A DNA stretch of 11,501 nt from Candidatus Micrarchaeia archaeon (lineage in GTDB: Archaea; Micrarchaeota; Micrarchaeia; CABMEP01), in the NCBI GenBank assembly GCA_038886535.1, contig JAVZXS010000015.1, forward strand, positions 1 through 11,501. The letters run 5' to 3'. The notes below the pieces were generated by a model that was not told the DNA's origin, did no database searches, and saw only the letters and a list, made by a program, of their open reading frames with translations. Within the stretch, counting starts at the first letter, position 1. The number at the start of each line of letters is the position of its first letter. This document shows positions 2,150 through 11,029 of the stretch, one piece after another. The position numbers and the translations under genes were made by a program.

Positions 2150-2416
2150 TTGGCAGACAAACTTTTCACAATAGCCTGCGTTGTAGCACGTTATTTTGAT
2201 GTTGAGGAACCTGATGTTAATGCAGACACCCAAGAACTAGCCATGTTTATTAAGAATGCACTAAAAGGGAAACTTCCTGAATCAAAACACTGCGTTCAAT
2301 GTGGTGGAATTCTTGTAAAAAGAATAACAGGTGGAGCAGAAAGATACCACTGCAAAAACTGTTTTTCTGTTTTTGATATTAAAACCTATAAAAAGAAAAG
2401 GAGACTGTATGCCTAA
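2150..2416 (+). CDS. Small zinc-ribbon protein (88 aa, TTG start)
   Basis: CVQC...CKNC four-Cys ribbon. AAGGAGGT lies just upstream of the in-frame TTG at 2150, a better start than 2093. The 3' end overlaps the topB start. Confidence 0.75.
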   Translation: MADKLFTIACVVARYFDVEEPDVNADTQELAMFIKNALKGKLPESKHCVQCGGILVKRITGGAERYHCKNCFSVFDIKTYKKKRRLYA

Positions 2417-4400
2417 ACAACTAATTTTATGTGAGAAACCCTCAGTAGGGATGGACTTTGCAAAAGGACTTGGAAACAACTTTACTCAAAAAGATGGTTT
2501 TCTTGAAAACAGTAACTATATAATTACATGGGCACATGGACATTTGTGTGAACTTAAAACTCCTGAAGAATACAATCCTGAATTGAAAAAGTGGAGTATT
2601 GATACCTTACCAGTTTTTCCTGAAAAATTTGAATACAAAATTATTAAAGAAGGAGCAAAACAGTTTAAAGTTATTAAAGATTTAATACACAGACAAGATG
2701 TATCAAGTATAGTAATAGCAACAGACTGTGGAAGAGAAGGAGAATTAATTGCAAGGTTAATCTTATTGCTTTCAGGTAATAAAAAACCAACTTATCGTTT
2801 TTGGACTTCAAAAGCACTTACCCCAGAAGTAGTGCAAAGAGAAATAAAAAATCTAAAACCTGCGAAAGAGTTTGACCGACTTTATCAGTCCGCACTGGCA
2901 AGACAGTGGGCAGACTGGCTTGTAGGAATAAATGCTACAAGAGCAGTAACTATAAAAAACAACGGAGAACTATTTAGTGTAGGAAGGGTTCAAACTGCAG
3001 TTTTATCGCTTATAGTAAACAGAGAAAAAGAGATTAAAGAATTCAAACCACAAACATTCTACAACGTAGTTGCAGAGTTTGAAAAAGGTAAAGATTCTTA
3101 CAAAGGTATTTACTTCAAAATAAAAAAAGATGAAATAGAAGTTGATGAAGTTGAGCAGGAAGGAGATGAAAAGCAAGAGGAAAGCATAAATTCCAAGTAT
3201 GCAATACTTAAGAAAGAGGAAGCAGAAAAAATAGCAGGTGAAGTTTCAGGTAAAAAAGGCGTAATAAAGAGTATACAAAGCAAAATATCCTCAGAAAAAC
3301 CACCACTTCTTTTCTCACTTACTACGCTACAACAGGAAGCAAACAAAAAGTTCGGCTATTCTGCGGATAAAACTCTCAACATAGCACAATCTCTTTATGA
3401 AAAACACTTAATATCATATCCAAGAACAGAGTCTCAGCATCTTGACCCAGGCTATGTAGCAGAGGTTAAGAAAATTGTAACTTTGTTATCAAAAGCAAAT
3501 GTAATAAGTTTTGATATAAACAAGTGTAATATTAATGCAGGTAATAAAAGAGTATTTGATTTAAGTAAACTTACAGACCACCACGCACTTATACCTCAGC
3601 AGGCACCTAAAGGTGCACTTACTGAAGACGAAAAGAAAATATACGAACTCATTTGCAAAAGATTTATCTCTGCTTTTTATCCTGACTGCAAATACAAAAA
3701 CACAACAGTTATAACAGAAGTAGCAGGCTATTTATTTGAAACAAAAGGTAAACAGTTAGTTGATGCTGGATGGCGTGAGATATATGGTGGGCTTACTCAG
3801 GATATTATACTTCCTGCAACCATTCTTGAAAAGGATGCGGTAAACACAAAAAAAGCAGAAGCAGTTCAGAAGCAAACTCAACCACCGCCAAGATACAATG
3901 ACGCTAGTTTGCTTAACATAATGGCTAATGCTCACAAAGTAGTGCAAAACCCTGAACTTAAGAAAATACTTAAAGAAAATGCAGGCATAGGAACACCTGC
4001 AACAAGAGCACAAATATTAAAGGTTCTGCAGGATAGAAAATATGTTTACAAGCAAGGGAAACAGTTTGTTCCTACAGAAAAGGGAATGTTTCTTATAGAG
4101 ATGCTTAAGAATGAAAAGGTTGCTTCTCCTGAATATACAGCAGTGTGGGAGCAGGAACTTGAAAAAATTGCAAAAGGAGAAAGTAAGGATGTAGAAGTGT
4201 TTTTAAACTCAATTAAGCAGTATGTAGTTAATTTTATTGAAACAACTAAAAGAGCAAATACAGTATGGCAAAGGAAAGATTATGGTGGTGGAAAATTCAC
4301 AAAATCATATACAAACAAATATCAAAAAGCAGGGAAAACCTATAAGTCAAAAGTAAAAACTTATGGGAAGACAAAAAAAATCAATACATTTAAGAAATAA
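2409..4400 (+). CDS. topB: DNA topoisomerase III (type IA), 663 aa
   Basis: TOPRIM motifs LCEKPS, GHL and ATDCGREGE, plus ADWLVGINATR, SVGRVQT, catalytic ISYPRT, DHHA and GIGTPATRA. ATG 2409 follows AGGAG; the track's 2331 start is an over-extension. Confidence 0.95.
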   Translation: MPKQLILCEKPSVGMDFAKGLGNNFTQKDGFLENSNYIITWAHGHLCELKTPEEYNPELKKWSIDTLPVFPEKFEYKIIKEGAKQFKVIKDLIHRQDVSSIVIATDCGREGELIARLILLLSGNKKPTYRFWTSKALTPEVVQREIKNLKPAKEFDRLYQSALARQWADWLVGINATRAVTIKNNGELFSVGRVQTAVLSLIVNREKEIKEFKPQTFYNVVAEFEKGKDSYKGIYFKIKKDEIEVDEVEQEGDEKQEESINSKYAILKKEEAEKIAGEVSGKKGVIKSIQSKISSEKPPLLFSLTTLQQEANKKFGYSADKTLNIAQSLYEKHLISYPRTESQHLDPGYVAEVKKIVTLLSKANVISFDINKCNINAGNKRVFDLSKLTDHHALIPQQAPKGALTEDEKKIYELICKRFISAFYPDCKYKNTTVITEVAGYLFETKGKQLVDAGWREIYGGLTQDIILPATILEKDAVNTKKAEAVQKQTQPPPRYNDASLLNIMANAHKVVQNPELKKILKENAGIGTPATRAQILKVLQDRKYVYKQGKQFVPTEKGMFLIEMLKNEKVASPEYTAVWEQELEKIAKGESKDVEVFLNSIKQYVVNFIETTKRANTVWQRKDYGGGKFTKSYTNKYQKAGKTYKSKVKTYGKTKKINTFKK

Positions 4401-4486
4401 AAATTTCATTTGATTTTCTTTGTTACATTTAAATCCTTTTAAGTAGAAAAAATAATTCTTAAAACTTTCTCATGGAGGTTACATCC

Positions 4487-6574
4487 ATGTTTTCCCAAAT
4501 TGAAAAACGTGATGGTAGAATTGTGCCTTTTGATGCACAAAAAATAGTAAATGCCATTGCCAAGGCAGGTAAGGCAACAGGTGAGTTTGACGAAAAGGTA
4601 GCCAAGAGACTTGCAGGTAGGGTTCTTGCAGTGCTTGAGGATTTAAATGGTGATGGCACTTACATTCCGCATGTAGAGGAAGTTCAGGACATAGTAGAGG
4701 AAATTTTACTTCGCAGTCAGTATAAGAAAACTGCTAAAGCATACATAATCTACAGAGACCAACATGCAAAGATGAGAGAAATTGCTACACAAAGTGGTAT
4801 AGAATTGGTAGATGCATATCTTAGTAAAGCAGACTGGCGTGTTAATGAAAATGCTAATGTTCACTTCTCCCTTCAAGGGCTTAACAACTACATATCATCA
4901 GAAATAAGCAAATCCTACTGGTTAAATAAAATCTATCCACCTGAGATAAGAGAAGCATACAAAAATGGTGCTATGCATATTCACGACCTAAATTTACTTT
5001 CAGCCTATTGTGTCGGGTGGGATTTGCAAGACCTGTTAAGAACAGGATTTAGAGGGCTAAAGGGTAGGGTAGAATCCAATCCACCAAAGCACTTTAGGGT
5101 TGCACTTATGCAAGCAGTGAACTTCCTCTATACACTTCAGAATGAAACTGCAGGAGCATCTGCATTTTCTAACTTTGACACCCTTCTTGCACCTTTCATT
5201 GCTTATGATAATCTCACTTACAAACAAGTAAAACAATGCATGCAGGAATTCTTATTCAACATAAATGTTCCTACAAGGACTGCAGGACAAGTTCCTTTCA
5301 CCAACATAACACTTGATATAACAGTTCCACCACATCTGAAAGACCAAGCGGTAATTATTGGTGGCATACCACAAGATAGGACTTATGGGGAGTTTCAAGA
5401 ATATATGGATATGTTCAATCAAGCATTGTTTGAATGCATGATGGAAGGAGATGCCTCTGGTAGAGTGTTTTCTTTCCCCATTCCTACCGTAAATATAACT
5501 AAGGAATTTGATTGGCATAGACCTGTTGTAAAGCAGATGCTTGAGTTGACTGCAAAGTATGGAACATTTTACTTTGCAAACTTTATTAATTCAGATATGA
5601 AACCAGAGGATACCTATTCAATGTGCTGCAGGTTAATGCTTGACAAGAAAGAACTTCAAAGAAAAGGTGGTGGTTTATTTGGTGCAAACGCCCAAACTGG
5701 CTCTATAGGAGTGGTGACTATTAATTTACCGCGCATTGGCTATTTAAGCACTTCAGAGAAAGACTATTTTGAAAGACTTGAAGCACTGATGAACCTTGCA
5801 AAAAATTCTCTTGAAATAAAGAGAAAAGTTATTGAAAGATTTACAGAAACAGGACTATATCCTTATGCAAAATTCTATTTAAGAAGTGTTAAGGAAAAAA
5901 CAGGTAAGTATTGGAGCAATCACTTCTCTACAATTGGTATTATTGGCATGAATGAATCCATTGCAAATGCAAAATGGCTTGGTGAACCAGGAATATGGAC
6001 AAAGGGTGGTAAAGAGTTTGCACTCAAAGTGCTTGATTTTATGAGAGAGAAACTCATTCAGTATCAAGAGGAAACAGGTAATCTCTATAATCTTGAAGCA
6101 ACACCAGCAGAGGGAACTTCATACAGATTTGCAAAGATAGATAAACAGCATTTCCCTGATATAATTACTCAAGGAAATGAAGAACCTTACTATACAAACT
6201 CCACATGGTTACCTGTTGGGTTTACTGAATCAATTCATTACATACTTGACCATCAGGATGAACTGCAGAGCAAATACACAGGTGGCACAGTGCAACACAT
6301 ATTTTTAGGTGAAAGCCCTGACCCTGAAAAACTTGGTAACTTTATTATGAGTGTATTTACTAAGTATAGACTTCCCTACATTAGCATAACACCAACTTTT
6401 AGTGTGTGTGAGAAGCACGGATATATTGAAGGAGAGCATTCTGTTTGTCCAAAATGTGGAGCAGAGTGTGAAATTTATTCTCGTGTTGTTGGATACCTTA
6501 GACCAGTAAATTATTGGAATAACGGTAAAAAAGAGGAATTTAAAGATAGAAAATATATCAATTTATCTCAATAA
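4487..6574 (+). CDS. nrdD: Anaerobic (class III) ribonucleoside-triphosphate reductase with N-terminal ATP cone
   Basis: ATP cone IEKRDGRIVPFD...VEEVQD, then HIHDL, AYC, finger loop SMCCRL, EATPAEG, Zn site CEKH...CPKC and glycyl-radical loop YSRVVGY. ATG 4487 follows GGAGG at 4474-4478. Confidence 0.96.
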   Translation: MFSQIEKRDGRIVPFDAQKIVNAIAKAGKATGEFDEKVAKRLAGRVLAVLEDLNGDGTYIPHVEEVQDIVEEILLRSQYKKTAKAYIIYRDQHAKMREIATQSGIELVDAYLSKADWRVNENANVHFSLQGLNNYISSEISKSYWLNKIYPPEIREAYKNGAMHIHDLNLLSAYCVGWDLQDLLRTGFRGLKGRVESNPPKHFRVALMQAVNFLYTLQNETAGASAFSNFDTLLAPFIAYDNLTYKQVKQCMQEFLFNINVPTRTAGQVPFTNITLDITVPPHLKDQAVIIGGIPQDRTYGEFQEYMDMFNQALFECMMEGDASGRVFSFPIPTVNITKEFDWHRPVVKQMLELTAKYGTFYFANFINSDMKPEDTYSMCCRLMLDKKELQRKGGGLFGANAQTGSIGVVTINLPRIGYLSTSEKDYFERLEALMNLAKNSLEIKRKVIERFTETGLYPYAKFYLRSVKEKTGKYWSNHFSTIGIIGMNESIANAKWLGEPGIWTKGGKEFALKVLDFMREKLIQYQEETGNLYNLEATPAEGTSYRFAKIDKQHFPDIITQGNEEPYYTNSTWLPVGFTESIHYILDHQDELQSKYTGGTVQHIFLGESPDPEKLGNFIMSVFTKYRLPYISITPTFSVCEKHGYIEGEHSVCPKCGAECEIYSRVVGYLRPVNYWNNGKKEEFKDRKYINLSQ

Positions 6575-6641: not shown

Positions 6642-7700
6642 ATGAAAAAAACTAAAAAATTTCACATTGGATGGGGTTTTGGGAACTGTAATTTTAAATG
6701 CATCCATTGTTACAATAGTTCAAAAAAACGAAAGTATAAATATCAGTTAGATTTGTTATTGTCAACTGCACGACAATTATGTCCCATAGCAGATTCTATA
6801 AATTTTGGTTCGGGCGAATTTATCTATAACAGCCATACAATTGAATTATTAGAATTCATTCATTCTGAATTTTCTGAAGTTTCTATTGCATTAACAACCA
6901 ATGGTTCTTCAGTGTTACGATTACCTGAAGAAAAACTTTTATATTTTCATGACATAGATGTCTCTTTAGATTTTCCAACTAAAGAAAAACAAATTAATTT
7001 TAGGCAACACAGCAGTGCTTGGGATATTCCTATTAAGGCGTTACAAAAACTAAAGTCAATAGATAAAATTCCATTTACAATAGTAACTTGTGTTACTAAT
7101 ATTACTCAACCAGATGACATAAAAAGACTTTTAGAGTTGGCAAATAACTTTAATGCTTTTTTAAGAATTAGTTGGCTTAGAAAAACTGGTTATGCGTCAG
7201 ATGGTTTATATCTTAATCCAAGACATGCTTGGAATTTGTTAAACACACTAGTAGAAAATTCTTATATTGTTAACATAGACAGTGTATTTGGGGCTCCAAT
7301 GGGAATTAATGTAAATAAATGTCCTGCTGGATTAAATTCGTTAAGAATTCAGGACAATGGAGATGTAACTCCTTATACTTTTTTAAAAAGTAAAAACTGG
7401 GTAATTGGAAACATATATGAAAATTTAGATTTTTTGCAAAATATCGATGAAAGAGTAAATGAAATTTGTAGTAGAAATCTTTTTGAATGCAAAGATTGCC
7501 AATTTTTACACTTATGTCAAGGAGGATGTATTAGTAGAGCCTATTTGCATAGGGGCGATAAAAACAGAGCTGATGACTTATGTTATAAAGTAGCACAAAT
7601 TCCTCTAGATTTTATTAAAAAAATAAAAGAAAAAATAAAATTCAAAAAATACAATCTTGTTCATGGAGGATATTTATGTACAACAATAGTAACGACTTAA
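6642..7700 (+). CDS. Radical SAM enzyme with SPASM-type auxiliary Fe-S domain
   Basis: C16xxxC20xxC23 (CNFKCIHC), INFGSGE, TTNG and VSLD. C-terminal CPAG...GDVTP...IGNI...CKDCQFLHLCQGGC...DDLC. Confidence 0.9.
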   Translation: MKKTKKFHIGWGFGNCNFKCIHCYNSSKKRKYKYQLDLLLSTARQLCPIADSINFGSGEFIYNSHTIELLEFIHSEFSEVSIALTTNGSSVLRLPEEKLLYFHDIDVSLDFPTKEKQINFRQHSSAWDIPIKALQKLKSIDKIPFTIVTCVTNITQPDDIKRLLELANNFNAFLRISWLRKTGYASDGLYLNPRHAWNLLNTLVENSYIVNIDSVFGAPMGINVNKCPAGLNSLRIQDNGDVTPYTFLKSKNWVIGNIYENLDFLQNIDERVNEICSRNLFECKDCQFLHLCQGGCISRAYLHRGDKNRADDLCYKVAQIPLDFIKKIKEKIKFKKYNLVHGGYLCTTIVTT

Positions 7701-8368
7701 ATCTGCAGGACTATACAGTTGTTTTGGTTTCAAGAGGCGGAATAAGCCCTCCTTATTTGAGTTGGTGGAGAAAAATATCTAAAAAAATACATGTATTAGA
7801 CTTTAGCAGATGGAGATGGTTTGCTTATAATAAAGAACCTCAATGGATATATCCACCTTATCCGCCTAAAGATGAAAATTTAATTATTTTTGACAGAAGT
7901 ATCTCTACTGGGATGACTATGAAATTTCTTAAAAAATATTTGACAAACAAAGGATATAATGTTGTTTGTATAGGAGTTTTAGATAAAAAATTTGGTTTAT
8001 TAGGACAGAAATTTTTAGATTATATATGGGATAATGGACAAATAATAAAAGCAGATGATTTTCAAAATGATGCAAAATTTAACTATACAATAGTTGTAGT
8101 TGAAAAAACAATTCCATTTCTGGGTGGATTAAATTATGAACCTGACTTTCTTTCTTTACAAGAAAACCCGCTTGACAATGTAGTTAATAAAGACAAAAGT
8201 ATAGTAATCCAAAAAGTGCCTACATGGATAGAAGGTATGTTAATTAGTTATATAGTGGAAAAACCCCTTATTCTTGTAGCACCGCCAGAACAGGTAAATA
8301 TACCAGTTGACTTAAATACTGACGAAGAAATCAACTTAATTTATTCTTATTTGCAAAAAGAAAAATAA
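7676..8368 (+). CDS. Type I phosphoribosyltransferase-like protein with atypical PRPP loop
   Basis: VVLVSRGG pyrophosphate loop, LIIFDRSISTGMTM PRPP-binding loop and a later DY motif. RBS GGAGGA at about 7665-7670. Overlaps the upstream gene. Confidence 0.75.
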   Translation: MYNNSNDLNLQDYTVVLVSRGGISPPYLSWWRKISKKIHVLDFSRWRWFAYNKEPQWIYPPYPPKDENLIIFDRSISTGMTMKFLKKYLTNKGYNVVCIGVLDKKFGLLGQKFLDYIWDNGQIIKADDFQNDAKFNYTIVVVEKTIPFLGGLNYEPDFLSLQENPLDNVVNKDKSIVIQKVPTWIEGMLISYIVEKPLILVAPPEQVNIPVDLNTDEEINLIYSYLQKEK

Positions 8369-8380
8369 AATTTCACAAAA

Positions 8381-8827
8381 ATGATGGAAAAAACAACTAT
8401 TTTCTCTGATTTAGATGGAGTTATTGCTCAAAATGTAGAAGACGCAGAGATTGTTTTAAACTCTATAAATAATATTGAAAAATTTTTTTTGAATTTAAAA
8501 TCCATAGATGATATATATTTACTTCAAAAATTTTTAAAAGAAAATGCAAAAAAAATTATTTTCTCTGTAATTACAGCGAGACCAATTATTTTATTTGATA
8601 TTACAAAAAAATGGCTAAACAAAAATTCAATTCCTTTTTGTTCTCTTTATTGCTGTGGTAGTGCTGAAGAAAAGATTAATACAGTATTAAAAATCAATCC
8701 TGATTTTTTTATTGATGATAAAAAAATAATTATTGAACAAATTAAAAAAAGAAGCACAAAAACTACAAGTATTCTTTTTGAAAGTTGGAGGAATACTCTT
8801 AAAATAATTTCTTACCATTTGAGATAA
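8381..8827 (+). CDS. HAD-superfamily phosphatase, 5'(3')-deoxyribonucleotidase (NT5C)-like
   Basis: HAD motif I IFSDLDGV, motif II ITAR, motif III Lys (EEKI) and motif IV FFIDD. TKKWL helix typical of the NT5C-like group. Confidence 0.8.
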   Translation: MMEKTTIFSDLDGVIAQNVEDAEIVLNSINNIEKFFLNLKSIDDIYLLQKFLKENAKKIIFSVITARPIILFDITKKWLNKNSIPFCSLYCCGSAEEKINTVLKINPDFFIDDKKIIIEQIKKRSTKTTSILFESWRNTLKIISYHLR

Positions 8828-8837
8828 AGGAGGAAAT

Positions 8838-10490
8838 ATGTTAATAAGTTTTGATGGAATTGATGGTTCAGGGAAAAGTTGGGCTATTTCTGAGTTAAAG
8901 AAAAAACTTGAATCTTGTGGTTTTTCAGTGTGGGCAACAGTTCCGAGAAATCATGTAGGCTCGTGCAGAGAAATAATTAATTATCCTGACAAGATTTTAT
9001 CTTACATTAATGATGCAAAAGAGTTTTTAAATAATTGTAAAAGTTTAATAAAAGATGGCAAATATGATTTTATTTTGCTAGATAGGTCTCTTTTTACTTT
9101 ATTTGCATGGTTTATTTTTAAAAATAAACTATTTACTCCTGATAGATTTTATTCAATGATAGAAGATGTATGGGCAGATATAACAGTTGTTTTAAAACCA
9201 GATTTAGAAATTTGCAAAAGAAGAACAATGAGAAACATTAAAGAAAAGAATAGTCATATTGCTAAAGACAACAAATATTGGATTAGTTTCTGGGATACAG
9301 TTAATAAATCAATAGAATATCTTTCACCAAGATTAAGAGAGAAGTTGTTAATTTTTGAAGATAGCGAAGATGCTGTTGATTGGTTGTTTAATACTTTGAA
9401 AAGAAAAAAAACGCATTTAGATATTCATTTAACTAATAAGTGTAATTTAAAATGCCCTACATGTTGTTTTGGGGCTAATAATAAAGTAAAAATCGAAGAA
9501 TCAGTTATAAACTATATTCCTGAAATAATTGAAAATGCACAATATGCAGGAATAAAAGAAGTTCATCTATTAGGAGGAGAACCTTTGCTTTTAGGAAATA
9601 AACTGTATGGTATAGTTCAATTTATAAAAAGTTCAGGATTTAAAATTCATATTATTACCTCTGGAAGTATATATAAAGAAAATCTGTTGAAAAAATTAAC
9701 AAAAGTTACTGATGCTTTTTTTGTCTCTGTTGATGGAGATAAAGATACTCATAATAAATTAAGAGGAAGAAACATATTTAATAATACAATGCAATTTCTC
9801 AAAGAATTACAGAACAGTAACATAAAAATTAGAATTGGTACTTTAGTAAGTAAATTAAATATTGACATTGCTCACAAAGTACCTGACATCTTAAATAATT
9901 ATGGAATTAGTAACTTTTCAATATGTTGGATGCATACTAGTCCTACAGGACAACATTTTGCAATAAACAGAAACCAGTCTAATAATTATTTTCTGCATAT
10001 AAATAAATACTTTATTTTGTGGAAAGATTGGTTTTCTTTCGTTAGTAAAGTAAAAAGTTTGTACCCTAATAATCCTGAATATAAGGTAGAAGTTCCTTAT
10101 ACCTTTTATAAAGAAAATTCAGTTTGTGAACTCCTTTATTTTAAAAGAAGGCTTTTAGTTTTATCTGATGGTTCTGTATATTATTGTCCTATGCTATCTA
10201 CAAAACCTTCTACTTACAACATTATTAAAAATATTAAAGATAAAGAATACTTTAAAAAACTTACTTTAAACAAAATTGAATTTAAAAGAAAATCTTGTTT
10301 TTATTGCTTTGGTGGTTGTCTTGGTTATTATGAAATATTTAATTCAAGTGCATGCGACAGCCGATGTGTTCATTCGGATGGTAACTTTATAAAGATAAAT
10401 CAAAATGAAAAATTAGTTTTTCCTTCTTGTCCTTGTAGAACACTCTCTTTGTCTTCTTCTTTTCTTGAAAAAGAATTAACAAAGATTTGA
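8838..10490 (+). CDS. Fusion of thymidylate-kinase-like P-loop nucleotide kinase and radical SAM/SPASM-like domain
   Basis: N-terminal ISFDGIDGSGKS, ILLDRS and ADITVVL...R are dTMP-kinase motifs. From about aa 190: HLTNKCNLKCPTC (C202/206/209), LLGGEPLL, VSVDG..THNKLRG. Cys-rich tail DGSVYYCP...CFYCFGGC...C..RC...CPC. RBS AAGGAGG. Confidence 0.9.
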   Translation: MLISFDGIDGSGKSWAISELKKKLESCGFSVWATVPRNHVGSCREIINYPDKILSYINDAKEFLNNCKSLIKDGKYDFILLDRSLFTLFAWFIFKNKLFTPDRFYSMIEDVWADITVVLKPDLEICKRRTMRNIKEKNSHIAKDNKYWISFWDTVNKSIEYLSPRLREKLLIFEDSEDAVDWLFNTLKRKKTHLDIHLTNKCNLKCPTCCFGANNKVKIEESVINYIPEIIENAQYAGIKEVHLLGGEPLLLGNKLYGIVQFIKSSGFKIHIITSGSIYKENLLKKLTKVTDAFFVSVDGDKDTHNKLRGRNIFNNTMQFLKELQNSNIKIRIGTLVSKLNIDIAHKVPDILNNYGISNFSICWMHTSPTGQHFAINRNQSNNYFLHINKYFILWKDWFSFVSKVKSLYPNNPEYKVEVPYTFYKENSVCELLYFKRRLLVLSDGSVYYCPMLSTKPSTYNIIKNIKDKEYFKKLTLNKIEFKRKSCFYCFGGCLGYYEIFNSSACDSRCVHSDGNFIKINQNEKLVFPSCPCRTLSLSSSFLEKELTKI

Positions 10491-10515
10491 TACATTAAAG
10501 TACCCTATATATAGG
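10486..10515 (+). promoter_or_regulatory. Copy 2 of the 30-bp repeated regulatory element
   Basis: TTTGATACATTAAAGTACCCTATATATAGG with palindrome CCTATATATAGG at 10504-10515. Its TGA (10488-10490) is also the stop codon of the kinase-radical SAM gene. Confidence 0.6.
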
Positions 10516-10543
10516 AGGAATATAAAAAAGAAAAATATTATTT

Positions 10544-11029
10544 ATGCTTGGATTTAGTTTTAAAAACCTAATTAACAACTTAGGAGAAATTATAACAAAA
10601 GAATTTTTTGTATTTGTGTTTGCTTTTACTTTTTGTTTTACAGAAAATATATATGCAATAGAACTCAAACCACCTATTGAGTTGTTTAAACCAATACCTG
10701 AAATTAAAAAAGCACATAAAACAAATAAATCAGTTTATCTACAGGAAGAAACGCAAACAGAAAAAATGCCAAAAGAAAAAATAAAAAAAAAAGATACACC
10801 TGTAGTTGTGCAAACTAAAGAAAATAAAGAAAAAACCACAACCAACATATCTGCTGCTATTGAAGATTTGAAAAAAATAGCAGACACAAAGTGGTTTAAA
10901 TTTAAAACAGAAAAAGACGTAATTATAATTTCAGGCATGACTAAAAAAGAAAATACGAAACAGGAAATGGAAAAGTACTGCAAAGAAAACAAATTAAAGT
11001 GTAAAATCACATTTATTAAAATTATGTAA
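10544..11029 (+). CDS. Hypothetical exported or membrane-anchored Lys-rich protein; start uncertain
   Basis: Hydrophobic FFVFVFAFTFCF followed by IYA (possible signal peptidase site), a low-complexity K/E/T linker and a small globular C-terminus. Same strand as its neighbours and ends 13 nt before dut. Confidence 0.65.
   Translation: MLGFSFKNLINNLGEIITKEFFVFVFAFTFCFTENIYAIELKPPIELFKPIPEIKKAHKTNKSVYLQEETQTEKMPKEKIKKKDTPVVVQTKENKEKTTTNISAAIEDLKKIADTKWFKFKTEKDVIIISGMTKKENTKQEMEKYCKENKLKCKITFIKIM

Follow-up and report, generated by a model that had tools for sequence, protein, structure and literature searches.

The described systems closest to the locus reported here each include a radical S-adenosylmethionine (SAM) enzyme. 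In toyocamycin biosynthesis, ToyC is a radical SAM enzyme and ToyH is a phosphoribosyl pyrophosphate (PRPP) transferase. The steps from preQ0 to the nucleoside in the toyocamycin and tubercidin pathways come after the radical SAM step, and the final dephosphorylation is by ToyI or TubG (PMC7492574, PMC12648386). Viperins are described as linked or fused to CMPK2-type kinases and as having a partial barrel plus a C-terminal extension without auxiliary Fe-S clusters (10.1101/2023.09.13.557418). ThmABC, which consists of a radical SAM enzyme, a kinase resembling AbmG, and a nucleoside triphosphatase (NTPase), makes 4'-thiothymidine, and the albomycin cluster has two radical SAM enzymes (AbmM and AbmJ) along with the kinase AbmG (PMC12691670). 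In phage M6, the kinase gp54 occurs together with the radical SAM enzyme gp53, which contains iron in an amount consistent with two [4Fe-4S] clusters (PMC8989533). Here, we describe a cassette of four genes in a stretch of 11,501 nucleotides (the window), which is the entire 11.5-kb contig C15 (JAVZXS010000015.1) of a Candidatus Micrarchaeia archaeon. The cassette encodes a radical SAM enzyme (rSAM1), a protein with a phosphoribosyltransferase (PRT) fold, a small HAD-superfamily phosphatase, and a fusion of a nucleoside monophosphate (NMP) kinase domain to a second radical SAM enzyme. Our tentative reading, held at a little less than an even chance, is that the four genes are one operon for the radical tailoring of a nucleotide, and that its product is probably a nucleotide or nucleoside analog.

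The cassette is a genuine unit, and the packing of its genes is more than chance because the same ones adjoin in other loci. They are found together again, with their order kept, in three or more divergent lineages, which range from 27% to 58% GC and share 30–40% identity. At one locus (L021, 56% GC), the C-terminus of rSAM1 (LVHDGYLCTTIV) is followed by the genes for the PRT-like protein, the HAD phosphatase, and the fusion, and at another (L022, 55% GC), the C-terminus of the PRT-like protein is followed by the HAD phosphatase and the fusion. At a third (L072, 58% GC), rSAM1 precedes the PRT-like gene and the contig then ends; another contig from the same bin (L003) begins inside the fusion. 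In a Patescibacteria metagenome-assembled genome (MAG; L023/L002, 38% GC), rSAM1 overlaps the fusion. Finally, a second MAG, with the label Anstonellaceae, has a contig of 5,488 bp that carries rSAM1, the PRT-like gene, and the fusion, at 95–97% identity or more. An initial annotation of the window, made from the sequence alone, had named a lack of co-occurring homologs as grounds for abandoning its proposal; what we found is that the adjacency is kept across distant genomes.

The cassette is also very rare, as is each of its four gene families. Among 5.8 billion clusters, the fusion has nine full-length relatives (33–95% identity), and the next match covers just half of the protein. The PRT-like protein has eight representatives among 1.84 billion, rSAM1 has only three full-length homologs besides itself, and three other family-level loci turned up when 185,579 species genomes were scanned. 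Within the phylum, a search with the fusion at E <= 1e-20 had matches in two of 401 genomes, this bin (G000) and G160. The match in G160 spans only residues 193–374 and lacks the kinase, which leaves the fusion in G000 only, and four genomes of the same genus have no match to it. The cassette is therefore accessory within its phylum.

An all-against-all comparison of the open reading frames (ORFs) at seven loci found that only the four cassette genes are common to them. Because nothing beyond these genes is shared, the boundaries of the unit are those that the initial annotation drew, and nrdD, a 161-amino-acid ORF, and dut lie outside it (Table 1). The four genes were said to be tightly packed and co-oriented, with one overlap and gaps of 12 and 10 nucleotides, and the ORF coordinates came out exactly as they had been given. 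GGAGG-like ribosome-binding sites precede three of the four genes, and rSAM1 starts 67 nucleotides past the end of nrdD. The GC content of the cassette is 23–29%, as compared to 37% for nrdD and 41% for dut, and the genes around it on the contig include nrdD, dut, topoisomerase, and RNase H. The cassette had also been described as flanked by genes for the deoxynucleotide pool. This is correct for nrdD, which adjoins the cassette, but not for dut, from which the intervening 161-amino-acid ORF separates it. A link to nrdD or dut is not borne out beyond the window: these flanks are specific to it, no other locus has the same ones, and we found no NrdD beside the cassette in L021, L022, L023, or L072.

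Table 1. Positions of the cassette, its parts, and adjoining features in the window.
Feature	Position	Strand	Description
Cassette, four co-oriented ORFs	6642-10490	+	~3.8 kb; two radical SAM enzymes, PRT-like protein, HAD phosphatase, NMP kinase domain
rSAM1	6642..7700	+	352-amino-acid radical SAM enzyme with C-terminal SPASM domain; overlaps the next ORF by 25 nucleotides
PRT-like protein	7676..8368	+	230 amino acids; 12-nucleotide gap before the HAD ORF
Small HAD-superfamily phosphatase	8381..8827	+	148 amino acids; 10-nucleotide gap before the fusion ORF
Kinase-radical SAM fusion ORF	8838-10490	+	550 amino acids; final ORF of the cassette
Fusion N-terminal domain, residues 1-190	8838..9407	+	dTMP-kinase-fold P-loop NMP kinase
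Fusion C-terminal part, residues 191-550	9408..10490	+	Radical SAM core, then SPASM-like Cys-rich domain
nrdD, anaerobic ribonucleotide reductase	4472..6574	+	PF13597 at 1.9e-194; adjoins the cassette upstream
161-amino-acid ORF	10544-11029		Separates the cassette from dut
31-nucleotide intergenic repeat	10488..10518		Palindromic TATA-like core CCCTATATATAGG; overlaps the fusion stop codon; second copy at 2092-2122

The kinase part of the fusion had been annotated as a dTMP-kinase-like domain, and this description holds, as the domain has the full Tmk fold with a P-loop, a DR motif, and a LID arginine. In an alignment of 10 sequences, the P-loop (FDGIDGSGK) is kept and D82-R83 are invariant, as are C126 and R129 in the LID region. 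The first 135 residues match Thymidylate_kin (PF02223) below threshold (19.7 bits, as compared to a cut-off of 27), and the score against TIGR00041 is 24.9 bits (cut-off 83.25). The domain aligns end to end with the genome's two canonical Tmk proteins. After the DR motif, the fusion kinases have Ser, Ala, or Gly at a position where those two proteins have Tyr. We considered whether the domain might be the housekeeping Tmk and rejected this, given the two canonical Tmk genes elsewhere in the genome. The N-terminal Tmk-fold domain is found in nine of the 10 family members in the alignment; the N-terminus of the other (P0002) is shorter.

The second half of the fusion matches Radical_SAM (7.9e-18) and Fer4_12 (2e-10). 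Its cluster-binding cysteines (C202/C206/C209) and the GGEP motif at 246–249 are kept across the family alignment. The SPASM-like domain that follows has eight invariant cysteines (C430, C450, C490, C494, C506, C510, C531, and C533); a SPASM model was not among the listed Pfam and NCBIfam matches, and the radical SAM part aligns with the whole of anSME. A model of the two-domain fusion, built from the 10 sequences, has a pLDDT of 82.6 and a pTM of 0.81. By sequence, the solved protein closest to the profile of the radical SAM part is BlsE (1.7e-12), which modifies a nucleoside. In the ESM Atlas, all clusters matched were generic (“PRT family” or “radical SAM/SPASM”).

The other radical SAM enzyme, rSAM1, matches Radical_SAM in Pfam (1.1e-12) and passes the SPASM model TIGR04085 (45.1 bits, cut-off 27). 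Its CxxxCxxC motif (C16/C20/C23) lies almost at the N-terminus. In the family alignment, the other invariant cysteines are C150, C283, C286, C292, C296, C314, and C346; the SPASM pattern CxxCx5Cx3C...C is invariant, and a C-terminal motif (HxGYLCTTIV) is conserved. As a single sequence, rSAM1 had no matches in a search of the PDB, but a profile search found SkfB and anSME at about 1e-11. Comparison of rSAM1 with the radical SAM part of the fusion by hhalign (95.5%, 312 columns) identifies it as a distant paralog of that part. The initial annotation's description of two radical SAM enzymes with Cys-rich auxiliary domains was thus accurate: both match Radical_SAM, and both have additional invariant cysteines.

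The N-terminal half of the PRT-like protein (approximately residues 2–132) has the type I phosphoribosyltransferase fold, and no family matches its C-terminal alpha/beta domain (approximately 134–230). We found no Pfam family at E <= 0.01 for this protein, Pribosyltran included, and its HGPRT- and OPRT-like matches in NCBIfam are at E ~0.06 only. In canonical type I enzymes, the PRPP loop has two adjacent acidic residues ahead of a TG-T motif. The corresponding loop here reads F72-D73-R74 and then T78-G79-x-T81, with F72-D73-R74 invariant in all 10 sequences; there is also an S44-R45-W46-R47 motif. This atypical D-R pair suggests that the protein handles an unusual ribose or binds its ligand rather than acting as a transferase. 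The protein had been called a phosphoribosyltransferase that builds a nucleotide. The fold stands, but FDR replaces the two acidic residues of the canonical enzyme, and because that pair is missing, synthesis of a nucleotide from PRPP is uncertain.

The HAD protein has no Pfam match. Motifs I, II, and IV of HAD phosphatases are DxD, S/T, and DD, and in an alignment of three sequences, the invariant residues are D10 and D12 (motif I, D10-x-D12), T65, K98, and D112-D113. The protein matches phrog_420 (2.9e-9) and the nucleotidase phrog_8630 (1.3e-5) among the PHROGs. The homolog in L021 matches NT5C (PF06941) at E = 0.0026 (18.1 bits, under the cut-off of 24.8), and the protein in the window does not match it. 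So, of the annotation “NT5C-like HAD phosphatase,” the HAD motifs are present, but the NT5C label comes from weak matches alone. The homologs in the high-GC clade are longer, at 310–327 amino acids (L021:858-1790 and L022:91-1074), and their conserved C-terminal extension of about 170 amino acids matches no family. No significant match came from profile searches of the PDB with the alignments of the HAD and PRT-like proteins, and an NCBIfam search with the HAD extension and the C-terminal domain of the PRT-like protein returned nothing useful.

How does the cassette compare to the described systems? Viperins make 3'-deoxy-3',4'-didehydro-NTP. Like them, the cassette links an NMP kinase to a radical SAM enzyme, here as an N-terminal Tmk-fold domain. 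However, the viperin partial barrel is closed by a cluster-free extension, whereas the fusion has a SPASM-like domain with eight invariant cysteines, and the cassette further encodes another radical SAM enzyme along with PRT-fold and HAD proteins. We rejected the identification of the fusion as a viperin: it scores 70.6 bits against NF038283, whose cut-off is 180, with residues 194–343 aligned to positions 4–168 of 281. Part of its pVip match in PADLOC (81.8 bits) is not specific, since unrelated radical SAM proteins of the anSME-like kind reach 36–47 bits too. The viperin likeness raised by the initial annotation therefore comes down to general similarity of the radical SAM core, as those unrelated proteins match the pVip models too.

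At the level of gene content, ThmABC and the albomycin cluster resemble the cassette: they are small clusters in which one or two radical SAM enzymes are joined by a kinase for nucleosides or nucleotides and by a nucleotide phosphohydrolase, and their products are nucleoside antimetabolites. The cassette differs in that its kinase is Tmk-like and fused, a HAD phosphatase takes the place of the NTPase, and its hosts are uncultured DPANN- or candidate phyla radiation (CPR)-type organisms. The toyocamycin and tubercidin pathways share a radical SAM step combined with a terminal dephosphorylation; the cassette has no homologs of QueC, QueD, or FolE, its radical SAM enzymes are of the SPASM type, and a QueE-like PHROG match is weak (1e-6). 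For anSME, SuiB, SkfB, PqqE, MoaA, and BlsE, no specific family model was passed. Phage thymidine hypermodification likewise places a P-loop kinase (5-HMUDK) beside a two-cluster radical SAM enzyme (PMC8989533), but its enzymes act on polymeric DNA, and the cassette lacks aGPT-Pplase and pyridoxal phosphate (PLP) enzyme genes. The identification of the cassette as a thymidine-hypermodification cluster was rejected, as neither the window nor the related loci contain the combination of 5-HMUDK and aGPT-Pplase (AADT) domains.

The initial annotation recognized no named system, and we agree, as none was found in PADLOC, NCBIfam, Pfam, or the PHROGs. In the literature, we found no NMP kinase fused to a member of the SPASM/twitch radical SAM group. 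Nor did we find a description of the cassette, in a search that left the supplementary tables of the viperin papers outside its scope; those tables could list fusions of this type.

We favor nucleotide tailoring because two of the proteins have the folds of nucleotide enzymes, the HAD protein is plausibly a nucleotidase, and a radical SAM enzyme is fused to a kinase. The enzyme classes point to a nucleotide substrate, as the initial annotation had also argued, and each protein of the cassette keeps its catalytic signature (two CxxxCxxC sites with SPASM-type auxiliary cysteines, P-loop/DR/LID Arg, and DxD/DD). In the mechanism that we propose, the PRT-fold protein would supply or hold a phosphoribosyl substrate. 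The Tmk-like domain would phosphorylate a substrate at the NMP level and pass the product to the radical SAM domain to which it is fused, much as CMPK2-type kinases do for viperin. That domain and rSAM1 might be responsible for one radical step apiece, at the sugar or the base, with their auxiliary clusters serving in electron transfer or substrate binding. The HAD phosphatase could release the nucleoside or remove a toxic phosphorylated species or intermediate. A patchy, accessory distribution fits a role in conflict (an antiviral or antibiotic antimetabolite) better than a role in core metabolism. The more specific proposal is that of an undescribed system in which a SPASM-type radical SAM enzyme fused to its own NMP kinase acts alongside its paralog, the atypical PRT-fold protein, and the HAD phosphatase. 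Its product would be a novel modified nucleoside or nucleotide that ultra-small DPANN- and CPR-type organisms use against viruses or other microbes, and the system would have spread among them horizontally. This proposal is possible, if doubtful.

Several observations weigh against nucleotide tailoring or the proposed conflict role. SPASM radical SAM enzymes act most often on peptides or proteins, and so do those that match best in structure (SuiB, anSME, and SkfB). The kinase domain scores under the Tmk cut-offs. The PRT-like protein lacks the canonical acidic pair, and both it and the HAD phosphatase are absent from the Patescibacteria locus (L023/L002). Of the four hosts with bins, three have a small genome (0.8–1.2 Mb), which would also fit a salvage role. 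Candidate defense genes (HigBA and PDC-S01) lie near just one locus, L002: among 18 flanking proteins, PADLOC matched only PDC-S01, PDC-M51A, and a generic pVip, all from L002, and none from the other loci. Finally, none of the sequencing runs that contain the stretch are RNA runs.

Four other explanations have to be weighed. The cassette could serve the salvage or housekeeping of a nucleotide or a nucleotide-derived cofactor in reduced-genome symbionts, with the PRT-like protein, the kinase, and the HAD phosphatase in ordinary salvage and the radical SAM enzymes replacing a missing step. A phosphoribosyltransferase, an NMP kinase, and a nucleotidase are classic types of salvage enzyme, the hosts are small (1.14 Mb for this bin, 0.8 Mb for G401, and 1.2 Mb for G402), and in the window the cassette sits among genes for nrdD, dut, topoisomerase, and RNase H. 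Yet a core function would not be so rare that three other family-level loci are all that 185,579 species genomes yield; the fusion is confined to G000 among the 401 genomes of the phylum, with no match in the four of its genus, and canonical Tmk and class II-type ribonucleotide reductase genes are present elsewhere in the genome. We consider salvage unlikely. It is quite unlikely that the cassette, on the model of phage thymidine hypermodification, supplies a non-canonical (deoxy)nucleoside triphosphate, or acts on DNA or RNA directly, so that nucleic acid belonging to the cell or to a mobile element is marked. A related suggestion of the initial annotation, a non-canonical deoxynucleotide for the DNA of the element, found no support in our searches: scans of IMG/VR with the alignments of the fusion and the PRT-like protein found no relatives, tblastn against 50,697 phage records gave only four weak matches to the radical SAM core, and the contig has no viral hallmarks, with no polymerase, capsid, or integrase genes found by Pfam and PHROG scans. 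Neither the cassette nor the related loci have an aGPT-Pplase-like or PLP enzyme. What speaks for nucleic-acid marking is the pairing of the kinase gp54 with the two-cluster enzyme gp53 in phage M6 (PMC8989533), together with the deviating composition of C15 relative to the main contigs, its second topoisomerase, and its nrdD and dut, which were not found in the genus-mates.

The structural matches of the radical SAM enzymes raise another explanation: that the two SPASM enzymes mature a peptide or protein, either a peptide made on the ribosome and modified after translation or by cofactor maturation of the anSME/PqqE/MftC type, with the kinase, PRT-like protein, and HAD phosphatase as accessories. 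The best fold matches are SuiB, anSME, SkfB, and CteB, and the top NCBIfam models are mycofactocin, GeoRSP, and StsB maturases, but every one of these family-specific models falls far under its cut-off. No conserved small ORF or other gene is common to the seven loci, and gaps of 10–12 nucleotides within the cassette argue against one there. Also, Pfam and NCBIfam searches found no RRE or PqqD-like domain; rSAM1 opens with its cluster motif and the fusion with its kinase. Peptide or protein maturation is thus very unlikely. That rSAM1 or the fusion is the NrdG that activates the adjacent NrdD seems highly improbable, even though rSAM1 begins 67 nucleotides after nrdD and no NrdG above cut-off was found in this 88%-complete bin. 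The scores against TIGR02495 (NrdG2) are 33.2 bits for rSAM1 and 37.1 bits for the fusion, as compared to a cut-off of 131.15, and TIGR02491 has no match. Homologs of rSAM1 adjoin the PRT-like gene or the fusion, not NrdD, in L021, L023, and L072, and in G401 (Patescibacteria), which has both rSAM1 and the fusion, NrdD was not found. The described NrdD activases are not known to have a SPASM domain.

The bin that contains the window is 1.14 Mb in 40 contigs and is 88% complete. Contigs C1–C5 and C16 (about 755 kb, the size of a genus-mate genome) have tetranucleotide profiles that correlate at over 0.98 with C1–C3, the three largest contigs of the bin; for C6–C40 (about 380 kb, including C15), the correlations are 0.85–0.96. 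C15 carries the second topoisomerase IA of the bin (another is on C1), and the topoisomerase of genus-mates is only about 38% identical to it. In the genus-mates, this NrdD was not found, and dut was unmatched. Class II-type ribonucleotide reductase genes are found elsewhere in the genome. Because tetranucleotide profiles and gene content set it apart, C15 may be an accessory island, an extrachromosomal element, or part of a second population, perhaps outside the main genome of the bin. A search for sigma-70 found nothing and a search for TFIIB found one gene, so no bacterial contaminant was detected.

DNA nearly identical to the window is present in hot-spring metagenome runs and is full-length in three runs of one study, perhaps the source sample. 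In each of two runs (X2 and X3), one contig joins position 6556, 18 nucleotides before the stop codon of nrdD, to position 10634, within the 161-amino-acid ORF. This joint skips exactly the cassette, and the matching sides are 82 and 66 nucleotides. It could represent a strain that lacks the cassette; the letters between the two sides were not seen. Many other joints in metagenome contigs fall at the 31-nucleotide repeat and are not necessarily rearrangements. In an alignment, the two copies of this repeat in the window are nearly identical, and across the whole bin its core occurs only at C15:2109, C15:10503, and C25:2679, all on small contigs. The copy at 10488-10518 marks the downstream edge of the cassette and could serve the gene that follows as an archaeal promoter or regulatory element. 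More generally, the repeat may be an archaeal promoter or operator that is common to a set of genes or to an element.

Some other features of the window and of the related loci are listed here for completeness. nrdD looks intact: its model is fully covered, and it ends with an RVVGY-type C-terminal motif, which we take to be the glycyl radical motif. A 107-amino-acid zinc-ribbon ORF (2093-2416) overlaps the annotated GTG start of topoisomerase IA (2331-4400) by 86 nucleotides in another frame; perhaps an N-terminal zinc-finger region has been split or frameshifted here, or the topoisomerase start was mis-called. In a bacterial MAG of 1.2 Mb, L001:1-1071 encodes the fusion only from about residue 238 and lacks the kinase and the CxxxCxxC motif. 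About 125 nucleotides of unrelated AT-rich sequence precede this fragment at the start of the contig, and genes for YebC, RuvC, and glycogen follow; we take the fragment for either a remnant or a chimera of the assembly. In the Patescibacteria MAG, the stretch downstream of the fusion (L002:1885-7359) contains two further radical SAM genes of the anSME-like kind, a fragment resembling a pyrophosphatase, paired HigB and HigA genes, a fragment of a radical SAM gene, an ORF similar to nucleoside 2-deoxyribosyltransferases, and a PDC-S01-type ATPase. An NCBIfam search with neighboring unknown proteins (622 and 238 amino acids in L021, 370 in L022, and 243 in L001) returned nothing useful.

Pairs of radical SAM enzymes and kinases have already yielded chain-terminating antivirals (the products of viperins) and thionucleoside antibiotics. 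The cassette would follow the same logic with other parts: two SPASM enzymes, a Tmk-like kinase fused to one of them, and a PRT-fold protein whose active-site motif is altered. At 3.8 kb, it is small and self-contained, and a version with 55–58% GC (L021) would suit heterologous expression, so that the question of its nucleotide chemistry is directly testable. Overall, as a candidate for kinase-linked radical SAM tailoring of nucleotides in organisms about whose immunity and secondary metabolism next to nothing is known, the cassette has real potential for new chemistry.

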